DNA of 64,000 nt from a virus, in IMG/VR virus record IMGVR_UViG_3300046492_000199; one strand, written 5' to 3'. Of the stretch, positions 12,919-31,455 are shown one piece after another; the first letter of the stretch is position 1, and every line of letters begins with the position of its first letter. The position numbers and the translations under genes are program-made. The notes below the pieces were generated by a model. The model was not told where the DNA came from, did not search any database, and worked only from the letters and a program-made list of their open reading frames with translations.

Positions 12919-13566
12919 ATGAATAAGTATTGGGGCAGCTTGAATTGGGGCACGATCCTCACAGTGATCACTTACGCCATCGGCTCAGTATTGGGTCTGG
13001 TTGATGTGCATAATTTTAACTATGTCGAATTTTTCGCGATCTGGACCAGCTATGTTTGCACCCTGATGTGCGTGTTCCAGACGAGGTGGAATTACCCGCT
13101 CGGCGCGGTTTCTACCATTCTCTACGCCATTCTATCTTATCAAGCCAATCTCCCCGCCGTTGGGCTGTTCAACATTCTCCTATCGATCAATTTGATTTAT
13201 GGCTGGTTCCGTTGGCGCAGCGATGATGTGACTCGGCCCGTTACCAATCCTAATGCGGCATGGTGGCTCGGATATGTCGGGATCGGGTTGGCCACTTATC
13301 TGATCCTAACCATTGTCAATGGTTACTTTGGCTACGACCAGACTTGGGTAGACGTTACTACAGCTGTAGTTTATGCCGTGGCTCAAGCCATGCTCGACAA
13401 CAAACATCGCACATCGTGGACCGTATTCTTTGTCCTCAATGTCTTGTCGATCTACCTTTATTTCAAGCAGGAAGCTTATTTCGTGGTTATCCAATACGTT
13501 TACTTCCTCGGAAATACACTTTATGGTCATTTTGAATGGCGTAAGTCAGAAGAAGTTTTCAATTAA
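12919..13566 (+). CDS. pnuC: PnuC-like nicotinamide riboside transporter
   Basis: Multi-TM protein with WNYPLG, YGWFRW, AQAML..K...SW..F motifs, located near NadR. Confidence 0.8.
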   Translation: MNKYWGSLNWGTILTVITYAIGSVLGLVDVHNFNYVEFFAIWTSYVCTLMCVFQTRWNYPLGAVSTILYAILSYQANLPAVGLFNILLSINLIYGWFRWRSDDVTRPVTNPNAAWWLGYVGIGLATYLILTIVNGYFGYDQTWVDVTTAVVYAVAQAMLDNKHRTSWTVFFVLNVLSIYLYFKQEAYFVVIQYVYFLGNTLYGHFEWRKSEEVFN

Positions 13567-13599: not shown

Positions 13600-14067
13600 G
13601 CTATCTAGATAAAGGAGGGTGTTTATGCTGAGATTTCTAATAATTTACGGCCTCGTCGCCTTTGGTACTTGGGCCGGATATGACAGAATTTATAGAGAGG
13701 CTTGCCCTTCGGAGAAGTTCTCATACGGTCCTGTCACGGCGGGAATTGCATGGCCCTTCTTCGCCGGTCTAGCCATTGCCAGCGCCACCACTGATAGGAT
13801 TTCCAATCCTGTCACTTGTGACAATAAATTTTAAAAGGAGGTTTTGATGCGTTATAAGAAATGGACCAGTGCATATCTTCTTAACGAAGCGTTGGAATCT
13901 CCCACGATGAAAGCAGAAGTCACGGTTAACGGCGAAACTATTGCTGTCAGCGCCGTGACAGAGCTTGAAACATTTGGCGTGACTTGGAAGCGTAACGGCG
14001 TTCTTGTCACGGAAGAAGATGCGGCAGAAGTTTTGGCTCGATGGGCCGTGGAAGGAGTTTAAATTTT

Positions 14068-14541
14068 ATGACGAGAGACGAAGTTAAAGCGAATCGAATC
14101 AAGTGGGCCAATTTCCTTCTCAATAAGAAGAGGAAGAAGGCTACCGGCATACTTGATAAGGGCGACGGTGCTAGATGCTGTTTGGGCCACGGCGCGTACT
14201 GCTTAGGCGTGTCTCGTCACAGACTTGGTGAAACGTATGTCACGAGTTTCGAGTATGGAGATGGGCGCGCAACATATTCCGCTCCTTCTGAATTGGTAGA
14301 CCTTGTCGGACTGTGGGACAGTGATGGCATGACTGAAGGCGAGGATTTAGTTATTGATGGTCTTAACTTTTCTTCACTAGCCTCTGCCAATGATGCTGAT
14401 AGGCATTATGCCTTTGAAACAGGCGTTGAAAGCAGAGAAATAAACATCACTCCTCAAATGATTGGGACATATCTCCTCACCGTGATCGAAGGCGGCGACG
14501 ATACTCCATTCCGCCCACTGTCGGAGTATCCCGAAGTATGA
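14068..14541 (+). CDS. hypothetical protein, CCLG-motif family (paralog of 19398-19739)
   Basis: W...L...K...G.L...DG.RCCLG motif shared with the later ORF. Confidence 0.55.
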   Translation: MTRDEVKANRIKWANFLLNKKRKKATGILDKGDGARCCLGHGAYCLGVSRHRLGETYVTSFEYGDGRATYSAPSELVDLVGLWDSDGMTEGEDLVIDGLNFSSLASANDADRHYAFETGVESREINITPQMIGTYLLTVIEGGDDTPFRPLSEYPEV

Positions 14542-15551
14542 CCACAACAGGACTATGCGTGATCAGTGGCCTCTTGCCGACACGTGGTCATCAATATCTA
14601 ATTGATTTTGGTTCTAAATTCGTGGATCGGCTCCATGTCATTGTCTGTATCAGGTCGTTTGAACCACGACTCACTCTGGATCGAGCCGAAGTTTTGGCAC
14701 AGCATTATGCTGGAACGAATGTAACGATCCACGAGCACTACGCCGATGATGCGCCTCAGAATGATGATGGCACGCCTGAGTTTTGGGACTATTGGTCCAA
14801 TCTCGTCAACAAAGCCATCACGAAGCGTAAAAAGATTGATTACTTCTTCGCCTCGGAAAAATACGGCGCGCGCTTCGCTGAAGCTCTTGGCATCACCTTT
14901 GTCCCGGTAGATATTGGCAGGGAAATCCTAAGCGTTACAGGGACAGGTGTCAGGAAAAATCTGGCTGAAAATTTTAAATACATTCTGCCTGAGTATCAAA
15001 ACCGTTTGGCCAAGACTGTGTGCCTCTACGGTCAAGAATCAGTAGGTAAAACCACTATGTCTAAGTGGCTCGCCAATAAGTTGGAAGGCCGTTGGATTCA
15101 CGAATGGGCCAGACCTTATCTTGAAGAAGTCGGCGCTGAGATAACGGATGAAAAAATGTTAAACATTGTGCGTGGCCAGTACGCAGCGATGATTTCCGCA
15201 CCTATGGCATTGTTTAATATAAGAGATACTGATCTCCTTTCCACTATTGGTTATTATAAAATCTATGGCGGAACTATGCCTGAAGAACTTATCCAAAAAT
15301 TTAACTTGACAAAGAGTGATCTTTATGTAATGTTAAATGACAATATCCCTTTCGAGCCTGATCCTTTGAGATACGGCGGTGATAAGAGGGAAAGTGAGAT
15401 GCAGTTCTGGATCGACCTGTTGGACGAATATGACTGCAAATATCATGTCGTGGACAGCACTGATATTAAAAAGCAACGCAAAGAAGTTGTAGAAGCTGTT
15501 TATGATTTTTTCACCGATCTACGCGAGATAGAGGAATTTATTCGTGACTGA
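14538..15551 (+). CDS. nadR: NadR-like bifunctional NMN adenylyltransferase / ribosylnicotinamide kinase
   Basis: N-terminal PTRGHQYLI (HxGH-type) and SEKYG. C-terminal P-loop GQESVGKTT, EWARPY, DTD, DPLRYGGDKRE. Confidence 0.85.
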   Translation: MTTTGLCVISGLLPTRGHQYLIDFGSKFVDRLHVIVCIRSFEPRLTLDRAEVLAQHYAGTNVTIHEHYADDAPQNDDGTPEFWDYWSNLVNKAITKRKKIDYFFASEKYGARFAEALGITFVPVDIGREILSVTGTGVRKNLAENFKYILPEYQNRLAKTVCLYGQESVGKTTMSKWLANKLEGRWIHEWARPYLEEVGAEITDEKMLNIVRGQYAAMISAPMALFNIRDTDLLSTIGYYKIYGGTMPEELIQKFNLTKSDLYVMLNDNIPFEPDPLRYGGDKRESEMQFWIDLLDEYDCKYHVVDSTDIKKQRKEVVEAVYDFFTDLREIEEFIRD

Positions 15552-15897: not shown

Positions 15898-16308
15898 ATG
15901 AACTACAAATGGCTTACCTTCAACTGCGTCACGCTCTTTATCGTGGCCTTTCTGATCCAGTTTTATGATGGATTTAATCAACTACTAGCTCTGGATCACA
16001 CCTACGTCTCATTATTCATTGTAGCTCAATATGTTGCGATCAGCACCTATCTAGGCATCAAGAAAGAAGCCTCTAATTTCAACGCAGTCAGATACTATGC
16101 CAATATGCTTCCGCTAATTGGAATGGTTGGAACGCTTACCGCTGTGATGTTGGTTATGTACGAAGCTCAGATATCAGGCGCGAAAACAATCGCGGATTTT
16201 CACGGCCTCTTCTCAATGTTCACCACAACACTCTTTGGTGTGTTCTTCCTAGGCATGTCCAAGTTTCAGCTTGGTCTAGCATTTGGAGAGTACAAAGATG
16301 CTGACTAA
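15898..16308 (+). CDS. MotA/TolQ/ExbB-like proton-channel membrane protein
   Basis: TM segments with LPLIGMVGTL and GLFSMFTTTLFG signatures. Confidence 0.7.
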   Translation: MNYKWLTFNCVTLFIVAFLIQFYDGFNQLLALDHTYVSLFIVAQYVAISTYLGIKKEASNFNAVRYYANMLPLIGMVGTLTAVMLVMYEAQISGAKTIADFHGLFSMFTTTLFGVFFLGMSKFQLGLAFGEYKDAD

Positions 16309-16885
16309 ATCACTATCAGTCTCGTACATCGACTTCCTTTGGGCTTTATGTGGCGTCTTTCTCCTCCTGTTCTTAATTTCTGACGTTCAGGTAGAGAAGG
16401 CGAAGGGGAATATCATTGATCCGGCCCAATTCCTAGTGGAAATGACATGGACCGATGATAGCCCCAACGATATTGACCTCTGGATGAGTAATCCTAACAA
16501 CGATATTGTCTACTACCACACCAGAGAAATCGGCGGAATGACCCTAGACACAGACAATCTAGGTAGAAATAATACTTTTACTGATCCAGCTGGTAATCTG
16601 ATTGTCAATCACACACGTCGCGAAGTTGCTAGTATTAGAGCAGTAATGGCAGGTACGTATACCGTCAATGTGATGCTTTTTGATAAAGTAACCAAAGGAT
16701 CAGAAACGGTCAAGATCAGGGTTTTCAAGTTGAATCCTTATAAAGATATTATTGAAAAAGTGGTCGTGCTAGAAACGGTCAAGCAAGAATCCACCATATT
16801 ACAGTTTGATGTTGATAAGGACGGCAATTTTATCAGTAAATCCGAAGCTGAACAGATTTCTCTCTTTGCGAGGTTGAAGGCATGA
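16298..16885 (+). CDS. MotB/ExbD-like TM anchor fused to YfaP/DUF2135-like periplasmic domain
   Basis: SYIDFLWALCGVFLLLFLI (conserved TM Asp), then DIDLW..NP...YY...LDTDN...GTYTVNV. Confidence 0.6.
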   Translation: MLTKSLSVSYIDFLWALCGVFLLLFLISDVQVEKAKGNIIDPAQFLVEMTWTDDSPNDIDLWMSNPNNDIVYYHTREIGGMTLDTDNLGRNNTFTDPAGNLIVNHTRREVASIRAVMAGTYTVNVMLFDKVTKGSETVKIRVFKLNPYKDIIEKVVVLETVKQESTILQFDVDKDGNFISKSEAEQISLFARLKA

Positions 16886-17349
16886 TTATCCCATCGATCA
16901 TTATTCTCGGACTTCTACTTGTCACAGTTTTTGTTGGATTTAAATATAACTGGAAACTCTCACTAGCTATTTTCATTCCAATGCTTTATCTCGGTTATTG
17001 GACCGTAGCCACTCAGGTTCCAAAATACTTTGGCTATGCCGTGCCAATCAATTTCGCTGAAATGGAAAATCAGGCCTTATTGATCAGCGGTTATGATGGC
17101 GGTAAACTTATTTACCTGCTCATCATAGAGAAAGGCATCAAGGAACCACGCCTCGTCAGTATGCCAAATAATGACGAAAATAGGGCAATATTTAACGAAC
17201 TTACCAAAAAAATCAAAAACGGGCAAGCCGCCATTATTAAGAAAAACAATAAAAAAGGCGAAAAGGGTAAGGGCGATGGTCAATCCAGTATGGGCGATAT
17301 TGAAGGTGTAGAGATGAAGGATCAAAATATCCTTCAAAAGGAGGGATAA
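16882..17349 (+). CDS. membrane-anchored protein, third gene of MotAB-like cluster
   Basis: Two N-terminal TM segments; ATGA overlap with the preceding gene. Confidence 0.6.
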   Translation: MIIPSIIILGLLLVTVFVGFKYNWKLSLAIFIPMLYLGYWTVATQVPKYFGYAVPINFAEMENQALLISGYDGGKLIYLLIIEKGIKEPRLVSMPNNDENRAIFNELTKKIKNGQAAIIKKNNKKGEKGKGDGQSSMGDIEGVEMKDQNILQKEG

Positions 17350-17755: not shown

Positions 17756-18061
17756 GTGTCGATAAAGGAGTTAAGGTTGTCTTACCAATTACCGTTGCTG
17801 TTATTTAGTGCTGGACTAAATTTAATTTTTATATTTGGTTTCTTTGCTTGGCGCATGGGCCAAACTCCTTTGAACAGGGCGAGACATAAAGTTCGCGGCA
17901 CGGATTATGAAATTTTAGGCTTTGCCACGGTACAAACCGCTGATGCACTTAAAGACGATGACAGAGTTTTTGTTTATCGAGATATTGACAATGACGAAAT
18001 GTATGTTAGAAAAGATAGTGAATTTGCGGACGGAAGGTTTGAATTAATCGATGCCAAGTAA
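17756..18061 (+). CDS. DUF1653-like small protein (true start probably internal)
   Basis: RHKVRGTDYEILG...VFVYRD...MYVR..EF pattern. Confidence 0.45.
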   Translation: MSIKELRLSYQLPLLLFSAGLNLIFIFGFFAWRMGQTPLNRARHKVRGTDYEILGFATVQTADALKDDDRVFVYRDIDNDEMYVRKDSEFADGRFELIDAK

Positions 18062-18545
18062 TTTAAAAACTATGATCCTTGTCAAAGCCGCTCTATCTGG
18101 TCAATACGACCAGCAGAAAGTATCTAAGTACGATCACTGTGTCAGAGTATCTAATAATGCATTAATGCTGGTGAAGCGTTACGACATTGCGGACGAAAAA
18201 CTGGCAAGTGATATTTATCAAGTCGCACTGCTCCACGACGTACTTGAAGATAGCGATATTACGGCTTATGATCTCCATCTCTATGGATATAGCAATGCCA
18301 TTATCGACGCGGTAGAGCTTTTGACTCACTATAACGAAGATGGAAGTTATTCAGACTATATCGATACGCTCTGCGCCAGCGGTAATATCACTGCTCTGAT
18401 CGGCAAGCTGGCCGACAATATGGATAACACATCAATTGGACGCAACGCAGGCCTAGATGACAGGTTCAAAAATTATTTAAACCGACGTTATGCCGGTGTG
18501 AGAGAAAAGCTGGAAGCAGCGATTGAGAAGGCTTTAAATGTCTAA
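18051..18545 (+). CDS. HD-domain hydrolase, RelA/SpoT/Mesh1 small-alarmone-hydrolase-like
   Basis: DHCVRV...ALLHDVLEDS...VELLT...KLADNMDN. Confidence 0.7.
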   Translation: MPSNLKTMILVKAALSGQYDQQKVSKYDHCVRVSNNALMLVKRYDIADEKLASDIYQVALLHDVLEDSDITAYDLHLYGYSNAIIDAVELLTHYNEDGSYSDYIDTLCASGNITALIGKLADNMDNTSIGRNAGLDDRFKNYLNRRYAGVREKLEAAIEKALNV

Positions 18546-19172: not shown

Positions 19173-19397
19173 CTCTATTTGATTATTATTTGCTTTGGGC
19201 CGGAACAGGGCTTTTGGGCTGTGTCATAGGATTCTATATAGATTATTATCTAGGGAATGACTCTAGATTAAAGGATTTGCTAGGATTTATCACTCTTGCT
19301 CTAACTATCGGACCTTTTGTTGCCGTAATGGCTATATCGTATTTTTGCTCAGAATTTAAAATTTTTGACAAAGTCGTTATTAAGGGAAGGAATAAGA

Positions 19398-19739
19398 ATG
19401 AGGATTGAGAACAACCATAAAGAACTGCGAGCGGCGTGGGTCGCTGCGCTGCGATCCGGCGAATATAAGCAGGGAGTGAACAATCTTCGCACCCCTGACG
19501 GGGAATACTGCTGCCTCGGCGTGGCAGGCAAAATCATTGGACTAAGTGATGATTTGCTAGGAGATTGGACCGAGGATGAATATCCTTATGACACGATTCA
19601 ACAGGCATTTGGTCTATCAGATTGTTTGGGAGCGTATGCAGAAGGCCAACTTTATTCACACAACGACCACGACGGCTTGACTTTCTCCCAAATCGCAGAT
19701 ATAATCGACGCCGAACCAGAAGGTTTGTTCATCGATTAA
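19398..19739 (+). CDS. hypothetical protein, CCLG-motif family
   Basis: WVAALRSGEYKQGVNNLRTPDGEYCCLGV...NDHDGLTFSQIADII. Confidence 0.6.
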   Translation: MRIENNHKELRAAWVAALRSGEYKQGVNNLRTPDGEYCCLGVAGKIIGLSDDLLGDWTEDEYPYDTIQQAFGLSDCLGAYAEGQLYSHNDHDGLTFSQIADIIDAEPEGLFID

Positions 19740-26337: not shown

Positions 26338-27756
26338 ATGAAGGAGCTTCATATGTTTAAACGTAATCCCGTAATCTCAACAGACAGTTATAAAATTTCA
26401 CATTTTAAGCAGTATCCTCCCGGTACTACTGAAGTAAGCTCATATATTGAATCTCGCGGCGGGCCATTCAATAATGTTGTCTTCAATGGCCTCCAAGGCT
26501 TTATGATGGAGAAACTTGAAGGTCCAAGAATTACCATCGAAGACGTTTTCAACGCAGAAAAAGTCGCGGAAGCTCATGGCGAACCTTTCAACAGGGAAGG
26601 TTGGGAGCGTATTGTTTATAAGCACGGCGGCATGTACCCTGTAGAGATTCAAGCCCTTCCCGAAGGATTTGTGACACGTCCCGGCGTTCCTTTGGTACAA
26701 ATTAAGAACACTGATCCTGAACTTCCATGGCTGACTTCTTATCTGGAAACTTCTTTGCTGCGCTCGATATGGTTCCCGGTAACGGTAGCCTCTCTCAGCC
26801 GTTCTATCAAAGAAGTTATTTATGATAACCTGAAAGCGACTTCTGATAATCCAGAAGCCGAACTTCCGTTCAAGCTGCACGATTTTTCGGCTCGCGGCGT
26901 ATCTTCTCAAGAAAGTGCAGAGATTGGCTCAACTGCTCACCTCCTAAACTTTATGGGAACGGATAGCATTGAGGCAATTCCTTACTTGCAATACGTCTAC
27001 GGCTATGCAGACATGCCGGGATATAGCATTGCTGCATCCGAGCATAGCACTATCACTAGTTGGGGCAGGGAAAATGAAATTCTTGCCTACAGTAACATGA
27101 TTGAGCAATTCGGCGGCGAAGGAAAAATCTACGCCTGCGTCAGTGACAGTTACGATATCTATAAAGCTGTGACTGAAATGTGGGGCAATGTGCTCAAGGA
27201 AAAGATTATCGCTAAAGGTGGAACCTTGGTGATCAGGCCAGACAGCGGTGATCCTGTAGAAATCACGCTTGAAGTCGTGAAGCGATTGGATGACGCATTT
27301 GGCAGCACCATTAATTCTAAGGGTTACAAGGTTCTACATCCCTCGGTTAGAATTATTCAGGGTGATGGAATTAACATTGATTCTATTAAAGCGATAGGTG
27401 AAAACTTTAAAGCCAATGGATATAGTGGTTCCAATATAGCGTATGGTATGGGCGGCGCTCTTCTTCAGCGAATTGATCGTGACACGATGAAATTTGCTAT
27501 GAAGGCAAACGAAATTGTAGTCAATGGCGAACCTCGCGAAGTCTACAAAGACCCTGTTACTGACACTGGCAAGCGCTCCAAGCGAGGTAGACAAGCCGTT
27601 GTAGCTTCCCATCATGGACACATTGTGATCCCTGAGAAGGATTGGATAGGCACAGGAGAACATAACTTCCTACAGCCTGTGTTCCGAGACGGCGTTATTC
27701 TAAAGCGTTGGACTTGGGATGAAGCTAGGGCTTACGCCTCGTTAAACACTATGTGA
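26338..27756 (+). CDS. nadV: nicotinamide phosphoribosyltransferase (NAMPT/NadV)
   Basis: TDSYKISH, YIESRGG, LHDFSARG, AASEHST, VSDSYD, IRPDSGD, IIQGDG, YGMGGALLQ, KDPVTD.GKRSKRG. Confidence 0.92.
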   Translation: MKELHMFKRNPVISTDSYKISHFKQYPPGTTEVSSYIESRGGPFNNVVFNGLQGFMMEKLEGPRITIEDVFNAEKVAEAHGEPFNREGWERIVYKHGGMYPVEIQALPEGFVTRPGVPLVQIKNTDPELPWLTSYLETSLLRSIWFPVTVASLSRSIKEVIYDNLKATSDNPEAELPFKLHDFSARGVSSQESAEIGSTAHLLNFMGTDSIEAIPYLQYVYGYADMPGYSIAASEHSTITSWGRENEILAYSNMIEQFGGEGKIYACVSDSYDIYKAVTEMWGNVLKEKIIAKGGTLVIRPDSGDPVEITLEVVKRLDDAFGSTINSKGYKVLHPSVRIIQGDGINIDSIKAIGENFKANGYSGSNIAYGMGGALLQRIDRDTMKFAMKANEIVVNGEPREVYKDPVTDTGKRSKRGRQAVVASHHGHIVIPEKDWIGTGEHNFLQPVFRDGVILKRWTWDEARAYASLNTM

Positions 27757-29310: not shown

Positions 29311-31455
29311 ATGAAAACAAATACAGTAGCTAATGATGACGTGCTGGTTCATGGCGCGCGGCAGACCAGAAAGTTTAGCATCGCGGCTAATGGTAAAGCC
29401 TTCAAAATTCTTATCGACGGCATTTACTCAAATAAAATTCAAGCCATTGTCAGGGAAATTTCTTCTAACGCTTTTGATGCACATATCGGGGCGAATAGGA
29501 GCGAAACTCCTTTCGATATTCAACTTCCCAATCTTCTTGATCCAAGTTTCAGCGTCAGAGATTATGGCACCTCACTGTCTCACGAAGACATTATGGGTCT
29601 TTATACCACTTTGTTTGAAAGCACGAAAGAGGATTCTAACGATGAAATCGGTAAGTTTGGTCTCGGATCGAAGACGCCATTTGCCTATACCGACAATTTC
29701 ACTGTAACAGCCTTTCTTCGTGGCACGAAGCGTGTCTATGCTGCATATATCGATGTCAAGGGCGAGCCTAATATCTCCCTCATGGCTTCGGAAGACACGG
29801 ACGAACATGATGGCCTAATGGTTTCATTCCCGGTTAACTCCAAGGATTGTGAACGCTTCAGGGTTGAATGTGAAAAAGTAGTCGAAGGTTTTGATATTAA
29901 GCCAAATATTCGTGGCGCTAAAATCTCGTTGAAGCGCCACGGCGAGACCATCAAAGAAGGCTCTAACTTCAAGGTCTATCCTAATGGCGGGGCGCGCGCC
30001 AAGCAAGGCTGCGTAATTTACCCCATTGATCTTGACGCCCTGCCCTCATTGACACAGCAGCAGAAGAATATCCTGACTTCTGATATTTTAATTGATTTTC
30101 CAATTGGCGAACTTGATATCACGCCGAGCCGCGAAATGCTGAGCTATGACGATATCACGATCCAGAATATTTTGGATATGGCTGAGAAAATTGACGCCGA
30201 AATCTTAGGCGATATGGAACAGCAATATTCTAAGATGAGAACTATGCATGAGGCGCGATGCTTCATGACAAGGCATAAAAATGCTGCACTCAAGACTATC
30301 AGCAATTTCGCAACCAATCTACGGTTCAACGGCAAGACCGTGTCCAGCCATTCCAACATGCAGCGCGACAAGCTTAAAAAAATCTACGGCGCAAGCATTT
30401 ATAATGTTGATGGCTATGACATTAGGAACTTGAAAACGCTAAAATACAAAGGCGATAAGGGTTATGTTACGAGTTGGGACGTTGATGAAGGAACGATGTT
30501 TCTTGTCGAAGATTATCGTGACCCTAATAAGGCAGTTAAACTAGTCAATGCAAGGATTCGCAACAATTTAGGTGATCATACCAATATCGTCTGGATCAGA
30601 GATTACGGTATGACGGACAAGCAATTTAGGCAGTTGCGTAAGCTACTCGGCTACCCACCTAAGTTTTATAAACTTTCGGACTTCCAACTCCCGGTTCGTG
30701 AGAAGACTGTCAGGTCTTACAATTATGACCCTGTGCCTCGCATCGCGCGCCACGAAATCCGTGCCGAGAAAGTGAATAGTAGCAACCAGACCTACGAATA
30801 TATCTTCGATCTGAATAATCTCTCGCAAGACACCAAATATCTTTTTTTCTATAAGGGATATTTCTTAAGCAATGAGGCAGATGCAGACAGCGGCGTAGTC
30901 AATATTAATAACTATTTTACCAAGGAAGAGCTTGACAGTTTTATCGTTGTTCGTAATAAGCACTTGGAAAAAATTAAAAAATTAGGATTCACCAATGCTT
31001 TGACCGAAAAGCGTGACGCACTTGAGCAAATTCTCGATTTCCAAGCGTTTAACGCGCGGGCTGAGTTAGATAAAGAAATGAACCATTGGATTAAAAAATA
31101 TGCCAATGACTTAAGTGCTTTAGAGTATGACAGTGACACTTCGTTTAAAAAAGTGCTTGACTTTTTACGTAGATATGCTAATAACGATGAGAGTGACACC
31201 AACAGCGCTAACATTGCGTTGTGGAAACGACTCGTTCCTCTCTCAGCCTATGTCGCTAAAAAAGATGAATTCCCTGTAGAATTCACAGGTGCTGACACTC
31301 TCAGCTATTGGGTAGATAAATTTAAAGCGGATTACCCTCTCGTAAATCTGTATCTCCCGACATATACCAGCAGTGAATTTTACAAAAATTTAGAACATAT
31401 TTTTAATTACATCAAAATGGTTGACAAAGAAAATGGCCAAAATATTATTACATAA
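29311..31455 (+). CDS. rIIA: rIIA-like protein (GHKL/HSP90-type ATPase N-terminus)
   Basis: IYSNKIQAIVREISSNAFDA, VRDYG, STKEDSNDEIGKFGLGSK, ELDITPSREMLSYD. Confidence 0.85.
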   Translation: MKTNTVANDDVLVHGARQTRKFSIAANGKAFKILIDGIYSNKIQAIVREISSNAFDAHIGANRSETPFDIQLPNLLDPSFSVRDYGTSLSHEDIMGLYTTLFESTKEDSNDEIGKFGLGSKTPFAYTDNFTVTAFLRGTKRVYAAYIDVKGEPNISLMASEDTDEHDGLMVSFPVNSKDCERFRVECEKVVEGFDIKPNIRGAKISLKRHGETIKEGSNFKVYPNGGARAKQGCVIYPIDLDALPSLTQQQKNILTSDILIDFPIGELDITPSREMLSYDDITIQNILDMAEKIDAEILGDMEQQYSKMRTMHEARCFMTRHKNAALKTISNFATNLRFNGKTVSSHSNMQRDKLKKIYGASIYNVDGYDIRNLKTLKYKGDKGYVTSWDVDEGTMFLVEDYRDPNKAVKLVNARIRNNLGDHTNIVWIRDYGMTDKQFRQLRKLLGYPPKFYKLSDFQLPVREKTVRSYNYDPVPRIARHEIRAEKVNSSNQTYEYIFDLNNLSQDTKYLFFYKGYFLSNEADADSGVVNINNYFTKEELDSFIVVRNKHLEKIKKLGFTNALTEKRDALEQILDFQAFNARAELDKEMNHWIKKYANDLSALEYDSDTSFKKVLDFLRRYANNDESDTNSANIALWKRLVPLSAYVAKKDEFPVEFTGADTLSYWVDKFKADYPLVNLYLPTYTSSEFYKNLEHIFNYIKMVDKENGQNIIT

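Follow-up and report, generated by a model that had tools for sequence, protein, structure and literature searches.

A phage gene trio that probably encodes a minimal ion-driven inner-membrane motor with predicted TerD-like and OB-like periplasmic domains

Three adjacent genes, here called A, B and C, occupy positions 15898–17349 on the plus strand of a 64,000-nt stretch of DNA from the IMG/VR record IMGVR_UViG_3300046492_000199 (the whole stretch is called the window below). We conclude that the trio probably forms one inner-membrane motor of the MotAB/ExbBD/TolQR class, i.e. of the proton-driven 5:2 type, which works in the periplasm. Motors of this class have been described before; the novelty lies in the minimal A subunit, the predicted TerD-like domain of B, a third subunit of OB type and the existence of a phage lineage. 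Literature searches returned no paper describing the trio, and the AP-16-3 paper is silent on these genes.

Results

Three overlapping genes in a large phage genome

The genes of the trio and the features on which the argument depends are the following (open reading frame, ORF; amino acids, aa):

15898..16308, plus strand: gene A, ORF of 136 aa, minimal MotA/ExbB/TolQ-type channel subunit
16111..16137, plus strand: A residues 72–80, PLIGMVGTL, in the third helix; GLxGT motif of TolQ, ExbB and MotA
16219..16239, plus strand: A residues 108–114, FTTTLFG, in the last helix; aligns with ALIATAIGL of TolQ
16298..16885, plus strand: gene B, ORF of 195 aa from ATG 16298 (ORF as listed 16283–16885)
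16331..16333, plus strand: codon of B Asp12, the membrane-embedded Asp; matches the Asp of the aligned MotB helix
16430..16843, plus strand: predicted TerD-like beta-sandwich of B, residues 45–182 (VIA-align, Foldseek)
16882..17349, plus strand: gene C, ORF of 155 aa
17053..17322, plus strand: OB-like barrel of C, residues 58–147, predicted to be periplasmic (Foldseek, VIA)

All three ORFs were found as described in the original prediction, which had noted three overlapping genes from the letters of the window, and the motifs that it quoted are present: PLIGMVGT at residues 72–79 and FTTTLFG at residues 108–114 of A, and SYIDFL at residues 9–14 of B in its 195-aa form. Counted from ATG 16298, B overlaps A by 11 nt, and the stop codon of B overlaps the start codon of C by 4 nt as ATGA, an arrangement that indicates translational coupling of A, B and C. 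Translation of B from an alternative start, TTG 16283, would yield 200 aa; ATG 16298 is the likelier start, since GGAG lies 8 nt upstream of it and since the 195-aa form is the deposited protein P0001. Judged by the homologues of B and by the recurrence of A, B and C together in this order, the ORFs are not chance ones. A scan for promoters and terminators around the trio gave no signal beyond that of shuffled controls.

The window comes from a phage with a large genome, because it encodes rIIA, a primase-helicase, NAMPT, a DNA ligase and an RNA ligase and because B is found at 82% identity on a 119.6-kb IMG/VR contig. A and B are also on record in a contig of 183,511 bases, the longest for both. 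A nucleotide search of phage records with the window gave no near match.

Gene A encodes a very short channel subunit

Hydropathy analysis places four hydrophobic helices in A (residues 3–26, 36–54, 68–90 and 103–120), with a cytoplasmic loop of only ~13 residues between helices 2 and 3 (55–67) and 16 residues past the last helix. This loop is the sole one rich in Lys/Arg, which fits a MotA-like topology with the N-terminus inside. Word-index searches with A and C gave almost nothing, because both proteins diverge quickly; relatives of A were gathered via gene neighbourhoods, and 38 of them were aligned (alignment A6). PF01618 is matched by 36 of these 38 relatives at E ≤ 0.01 (best 2.4e-11), and the family profile finds among PDB sequences the solved MotA (8gqy, 9.1e-8, the best match), TolQ (2.3e-6), ZorA, PomA and ExbB and almost nothing else. 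Both results support A as a very short, divergent member of the MotA/ExbB/TolQ superfamily, the family to which it had originally been assigned by its motifs.

The residues of the two pore helices are conserved. G78 is invariant in alignment A6 and G75 and T79 are nearly so; hidden Markov model (HMM) alignments with TolQ (8odt) and ZorA (8qyh) place these three residues on the GLxGT motif, with T79 opposite the Thr of the TolQ GLFGTV segment. The last helix contributes T110, which never varies, and T111 and G114, which hardly ever do; all three match the TolQ ATAIGL segment. The GLFGT and ATAIGL segments of TolQ and ExbB are those that carry the Thr residues facing the Asp of the B subunit.

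The sizeable cytoplasmic domain between the helix pairs that is expected of PF01618 proteins is not present in A of the window; to our knowledge, the A subunit of every studied 5:2 motor has a cytoplasmic domain. Bacterial relatives in alignment A6 carry an insert of 60–80 residues at the position of the 55–67 loop as well as a C-terminal tail, and most phage relatives retain a short remnant of the insert, of which the clade of the window has none. The median length of A is 247 aa at 77 bacterial loci versus 168 aa at 78 viral loci, and the 136 aa of the window protein are near the minimum.

Gene B joins an Asp-bearing membrane helix to a predicted TerD-like domain

Fold prediction of B from 31 sequences (pLDDT 87.8) yields a helix (residues 4–27), a linker and a beta-sandwich (45–182). 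Asp12 in the helix is invariant in 31 clean homologues and is Asp in 141 of the 143 filled positions among 150 diverse representatives, so that the conserved membrane Asp proposed at the outset stands. The family MotB_plug is matched below threshold by 5 of 35 B homologues (best 7.1e-4); in B of the window the match covers profile positions 20–48 of 58 and leaves the plug part unmatched. No ExbD/TolR-type or OmpA-like periplasmic domain was matched in Pfam by B and its 35 homologues; as far as we know, the B subunits of studied 5:2 motors all carry an OmpA-like or an ExbD-type domain.

In the predicted model, the periplasmic domain of B is a clear match to the TerD fold. VIA-align superimposes the sandwich on TerD 2qz7_B (Z 9.2, rmsd, the root-mean-square deviation, 4.3 over 137 aa) and on 2kxt, the calcium-binding TerD of Klebsiella (Z 9.0, rmsd 4.0, 138 aa), and the next match reaches Z 6.4; lower matches include calcium-dependent carbohydrate-binding modules and calcium-binding subtilisin domains. 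Foldseek with B also yields TerD and SAV2460. At the level of sequence, TerD is absent both from the list of 25 families that B homologues match and from the PDB sequence matches.

The sandwich bears a nearly invariant acidic cluster (D58, D60, D84, D86, position 87 as D/N, and E109) together with W51, G89 and R114. Among the 150 representatives, W51, D58, D60, L83, D86, G89, E109 and R114 are each present in 148–150, and D58, D60, D86, G89 and E109 in 149–150. This pattern suggests a metal or ligand site.

The label YfaP/DUF2135, given to the domain in the original prediction, is weakly supported. DUF2135 (PF09906) is matched below threshold by 16 of 35 B homologues (best E 1e-3), two homologues are named YfaP by JGI, and in the Atlas the closest cluster with a name is DUF2135 (0.89), which together indicate a likeness that is real but weak; B of the window itself has no match to DUF2135 at E ≤ 1, and the structural match is to TerD. 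In PHROGs, B weakly matches one unannotated family, and an NCBIfam search gave nothing useful.

Gene C encodes a membrane hairpin followed by an OB-like barrel

The predicted fold of C (pLDDT 71.1) consists of a membrane hairpin (2–19 and 24–50), a small one-helix beta-barrel (53–121), a disordered Lys/Gly-rich loop (123–140) and a final strand (140–147). The two-helix hairpin agrees with the membrane partner proposed originally, where the OB-like periplasmic domain had gone unnoticed. C belongs to no Pfam, PHROG or NCBIfam family, and its profile finds no match among PDB sequences. In an alignment of 41 relatives, G51 and R90 are invariant and P89, G114 and K153 nearly invariant, and two motifs recur, GWP after the second helix and PR.

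Residues 58–147 align by VIA with the OB domain of eIF5A (Z 6.5 over 71 aa), with OBody (5.7) and with PriB (5.1), and by Foldseek and VIA also with tRNA-synthetase anticodon domains and a pertussis toxin B subunit; the Foldseek matches have E ≥ 0.078. A wide VIA search of C was dominated by helical hairpins and uninformative on the soluble part. The barrel is predicted to face the periplasm, like the sandwich of B, because in 41 of 41 relatives the loop between the two membrane helices carries 1–4 Lys/Arg and almost no acidic residues and because the N-terminus is free of Lys/Arg. The C-terminus was considered as a free TonB-box-like peptide and rejected, since in the model and in the OB alignments it is the last strand of the barrel. 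DUF4131 is matched below threshold by 8 of 41 relatives (best 2.2e-4; in the one examined, 16.6 bits against a cut-off of 31.6), a likeness that we treat as a lead only.

Taken by themselves, A with its four helices and C with two helices and a charged tail could be holin- or antiholin-like lysis proteins whose resemblance to motors is superficial; both are small multi-helix membrane proteins, and Phage_holin_3_6 is faintly matched by 4 of 41 C relatives (best E 0.067). We regard this as very improbable: the motor-type motifs and the Asp are conserved over ~2,200 clusters, the cassette occurs in ordinary bacterial chromosome contexts, and in the window it lies among early/metabolic genes rather than beside an endolysin.

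The trio is co-conserved in phages and bacteria

Word-index searches found 65 homologues of B, and the B family comprises 2,239 clusters at 50% identity with E ≤ 1e-3, of which 1,632 have E ≤ 1e-10. We ran a pattern scan over bacterial contigs (one genome per species) and IMG/VR and obtained at least 475 confirmed stretches of bacterial species and 116 IMG/VR contigs. HMMs of A, B and C were then run over 160 loci, 80 viral and 80 bacterial. The A HMM matches in 153 of these loci and the C HMM in 149, and the genes follow one another as A–B–C at 74 of the 80 viral and ~70 of the 80 bacterial loci, at median distances of a few bases; the trio is thus co-conserved, a point that the original prediction had proposed to check. 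Save for a few oddly binned metagenome-assembled genomes (MAGs), the 80 kept bacterial loci are all from Pseudomonadota. Clear homologues of all three proteins occur in Alpha-, Beta- and Gammaproteobacteria, and in one alphaproteobacterial order 45 of the 401 genomes sampled carry B.

Among cultured phages (50,697 records), the trio was found only in Rhizobium and Sinorhizobium phages, apart from one weak match in a Salmonella phage. It occurs there in at least three unrelated genome types of rhizobiophages (68 kb, 154 kb and 171 kb) with differing neighbours, and a distant version is present in phage 16-3. Cultured carriers thus include RHph_N3_13, vB_RleM_P10VF and the temperate 16-3.

In bacteria, the trio can be followed by a fourth gene. 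A lipobox protein is encoded after C at 23 bacterial loci and at none of the 80 viral loci, and its presence in some bacterial versions fits an envelope-spanning system. Cultured bacteria with the four-gene version include Azohydromonas lata NBRC 102462 (L092) and Methylohalomonas lacus (L032). Examples of the fourth gene are:

L005 7118–7849 and L008 7097–7822: Burkholderiales fourth gene, lipobox protein of ~245 aa, no Pfam family
L059 6124–7626: fourth gene in gammaproteobacterial MAGs, secreted VWA + FHA protein of ~500 aa in place of the lipobox protein

Bacterial neighbours encoding YkuD, DUF302, histidine kinase and VWA-FHA proteins were set aside, as they may only mirror local synteny in genomes that are related.

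This distribution bears on whether the trio is a motor or an ion leak. In the latter case, the shortened A and B would let protons through with little or no gating and thereby lower the membrane potential, the outer domains of B and C only regulating the opening of this path, and the phage might use it for host shut-off, for the timing of lysis or for stopping competitors whose DNA entry needs the membrane potential. A has no cytoplasmic domain, the linker of B is short with the plug part of MotB_plug unmatched, the pore residues and the Asp are kept, and the same phage carries rII-type genes, which are linked to membrane depolarisation; all this would suit a leak. However, hundreds of bacterial chromosomes encode this architecture too, with C retained and the TerD-like domain no less conserved, and a permanent leak would come at a cost to such cells; that two periplasmic domains are so strongly conserved also suggests that they work on a partner and do more than gate. 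A leak is therefore unlikely in our judgement.

Phage copies appear to form a separate lineage

In a quick tree of 170 B proteins, 79 of 82 bacterial rows fall in one clade (support 99) with the viral rows outside, and three label changes suffice to explain the distribution. B of the window belongs to a 16-row clade (support 100) with rhizobiophages, in which A is 120–148 aa long as called. Of the three "bacterial" rows within viral clades, one (L014) is a contig of a phage like phiM6 and N3_19. This 67.9-kb contig (QFPW01000021.1), labelled as a MAG of Rhodovulum sulfidophilum, matches Sinorhizobium phage phiM6 and Rhizobium phage RHph_N3_19 piecewise and is probably a phage genome binned into a bacterial MAG.

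By this tree it is clear that phages did not acquire their copies recently from the hosts sampled. The phage lineage appears to be old and apart from the bacterial one, with A systematically shortened; the depth of the split is provisional, as the tree is quick and midpoint-rooted.

Two further explanations can be assessed against this phylogeny. First, the trio might be an auxiliary gene set of host type, by which the phage supplies the envelope function of the chromosomal four-gene system; the spread of all three homologues over three proteobacterial classes and the 45 of 401 genomes with B are in line with it. Yet recent captures usually branch from within host copies, which the phage copies do not, the fourth gene is absent from all viral loci and phage A is shortened, so that we consider this explanation improbable; in mechanism it overlaps with the motor that we favour. 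Second, phage subunits might act as decoys or poisons that mix or compete with host TolQR, ExbBD or ZorAB and thereby disable an envelope-sensing defence or the uptake of rival phages or colicins. A does share a superfamily with ZorA, TolQ and ExbB, and the phage copies are shorter than the cellular ones. Nevertheless, A is equally distant from ZorA, MotA and TolQ (in PADLOC, A matches ZorA at E 0.29, and B and C have no match), the full A–B–C set is kept with conserved catalytic-type residues that a mere poison subunit would not need, and the phage lineage is deep, separate and not copied from any host motor. We rate the decoy as improbable to the same degree, and the three uses suggested in the original prediction, dissipation of the proton-motive force, jamming of Ton/Tol and poisoning of Zorya, found no specific support, A being no nearer to ZorA.

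Genomic surroundings

The trio lies within a long co-directional array, downstream of PnuC and NadR-like genes. Features of the window outside the trio are:

12919–13566: PnuC-type nicotinamide riboside transporter, upstream of the trio
14041–14541 and 19365–19739: two small proteins
14538–15551: NadR-like kinase/adenylyltransferase, upstream of the trio
18051–18545: HD-domain-like protein
26338–27756: NAMPT (PHROG 448, 4.3e-153)
29311–31455: rIIA-type protein (PHROG 612, 7.6e-132)

Genes of NAD salvage thus stand just upstream of the trio (PnuC-type and NadR-like) and further on (NAMPT). A functional link of the trio with PnuC/NadR was dropped, because relatives of the trio are flanked by other genes. 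The rIIA family is tied to membrane-depolarising exclusion systems, and here an rIIA-type gene and a putative ion motor share one phage. A Cys-Cys-Leu-Gly segment occurs in both small proteins (ARCCLGHGAYCLGV and EYCCLGVAGKIIGL), as does an acidic tail, and the two may be paralogues of an unnamed phage family. The HD-domain-like gene begins ~700 bases 3′ of C and matches PF01966 faintly or weakly; an HD-domain-like gene is also found downstream of the trio in the related contigs L010 and L013.

At other loci, a gene for a trypsin-like, probably periplasmic protease lies at most 2 kb from the cassette in two unrelated rhizobiophages (phage 16-3, p036, L004 1247–2146; RHph_N3_13, L001 5588–6280), possibly by coincidence; in phage 16-3 a lipoprotein-like gene and the protease gene are upstream of the cassette. 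A GDP-mannose 4,6-dehydratase gene directly follows C at its 3′ side in 21 of 80 viral loci (e.g. L143 2674–3726), an adjacency that may reflect related marine phage genomes rather than function.

Discussion

Proposed mechanism

By homology with the solved MotAB, ExbBD and TolQR complexes, five A subunits would ring the two helices of a B dimer. Protons would pass via Asp12 of B and the Thr/Gly faces of the last two helices of A and would thereby turn the A ring relative to B. Since A has almost no cytoplasmic part, the output would lie in the membrane and the periplasm. There, the TerD-like sandwich would stand where known B subunits carry an OmpA-like or ExbD-type domain and would anchor the B dimer, most likely to the cell wall, possibly to glycan and in a calcium-dependent manner. 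The hairpin of C may ride on the A ring while its OB-like barrel binds a target in a TonB/TolA-like role, which would make C the moving or sensing part. In the phage, the motor would work on the envelope of the infected cell in the early-to-middle period, e.g. by blocking superinfecting phages or by holding the envelope until lysis.

Several observations weigh against this proposal. For the subunits, (i) A of the window itself matches PF01618 at E 8.4e-4 and 19.5 bits, under the cut-off of 22.9; (ii) that an A subunit lacking a cytoplasmic domain would form a stable pentamer or a gated channel is argued by analogy; (iii) the top match of the B profile among PDB sequences, the MotB helix 9luc_F, aligns Asp on Asp with E 0.43, which is not significant alone; (iv) the likeness of B to TerD is one of predicted fold, at 12–15% identity, and calcium binding by B is suggested by this model; and (v) the OB match of C is modest (Z ≤ 6.5), and C shows neither conserved His/Ser in its helices nor a TonB/TolA C-terminal domain. 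For the assembly and its history, the 5:2 stoichiometry is carried over from the homologous motors, the B tree was built with FastTree and midpoint rooting and has long branches, and the benefit of the trio to the phage is a guess. Even so, we hold each of the four other explanations (leak, decoy, auxiliary host-type genes and lysis proteins) to be less likely than a working motor, given that the periplasmic domains are conserved, that relatives sit on bacterial chromosomes, that the phage lineage stands apart and that A shows no special likeness to ZorA.

Comparison with known systems

The closest parallels are TolQ–TolR–TolA and ExbB–ExbD–TonB, which share with the trio three adjacent inner-membrane genes, an A subunit related to PF01618 with GLxGT and TTxxGL pore helices, a B subunit with one helix and an Asp at the essential position, and a third membrane-anchored protein with a periplasmic domain; the lipoprotein added in some bacterial versions of the trio recalls Pal in the Tol system. 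In contrast to these systems, A of the trio consists of four helices with hardly any cytoplasmic domain, B has a TerD-like sandwich for the ExbD/TolR domain, and C, which has two helices and lacks the SHLS/His motif, carries an OB-like barrel in place of the TonB/TolA C-terminal domain; this version is also encoded by a phage. With MotA–MotB and PomA–PomB the trio shares the four-helix topology of A with its N-terminus inside, the best PDB match and the alignment of the B Asp with that of MotB, whereas it lacks the large cytoplasmic torque loop, a match to the plug helix, an OmpA-like peptidoglycan-binding domain and a flagellar context. Zorya ZorA–ZorB belongs to the same motor superfamily, and ZorA chains are among the PDB matches of A, but the trio has neither the long cytoplasmic tail of ZorA nor partners of the ZorC/D type, and it is carried by a phage, not by a host.

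Domains of other families can be compared singly. TerD (2kxt, 2qz7) resembles the B domain in its fold, by prediction, and in an invariant acidic cluster; TerD proteins are soluble and cytoplasmic, whereas the B domain is tethered to a motor helix and is predicted to be periplasmic, with no sequence-level match to TerD. DUF2135/YfaP resembles B through the sub-threshold matches of many relatives, which do not reach membership. The N-terminal module of ComEC (DUF4131) shares with C two helices followed by an OB-like barrel, whereas the trio lacks channel and beta-lactamase-like domains and does not lie in a competence context, and the DUF4131 scores are far below the cut-off.

Two recent papers describe related arrangements. 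Motors of the Ton/Tol type that are called "generic ion transporters" and bear unknown appendages have been described (PMC12505986); the trio is not among them. TolQ-like motors with "transpore helix" vWA partners were reported by Williams-Jones et al. 2025 (PMC12204202), who proposed that such a domain transduces force itself. In common with these, B has an Asp helix fit for a TolQ-like pentamer that is fused directly to a non-canonical periplasmic domain; in contrast, this domain is TerD-like by prediction and not vWA, the trio includes the separate conserved C, and the paper describes neither the trio nor phage copies.

Implications

More tentatively than the motor itself, we propose that the cassette is a phage-specific lineage of the smallest known 5:2 motor, in which a helices-only A ring, a TerD-like anchor with a calcium site and an OB-fold partner have long been kept to work from inside on the envelope of the host. 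Structural work on 5:2 motors is currently intense and covers flagella, Ton, Tol, gliding and Zorya. An A subunit of 136 aa, with little beyond four helices, would set a minimum for ion-driven rotation and would be a handy small object for studies of mechanism. The bacterial four-gene relatives, found in the genomes of at least 475 species, are themselves an undescribed envelope system. Because the cassette is present in cultured rhizobiophages, its function is directly testable. That phages carry such a motor, and in a lineage of their own apart from the bacterial one, suggests a use of the host proton gradient by phages in the envelope that has so far gone unrecognised, and, if the proposal is true, the trio would add a new output mode to this motor class and represent a new kind of phage weapon.

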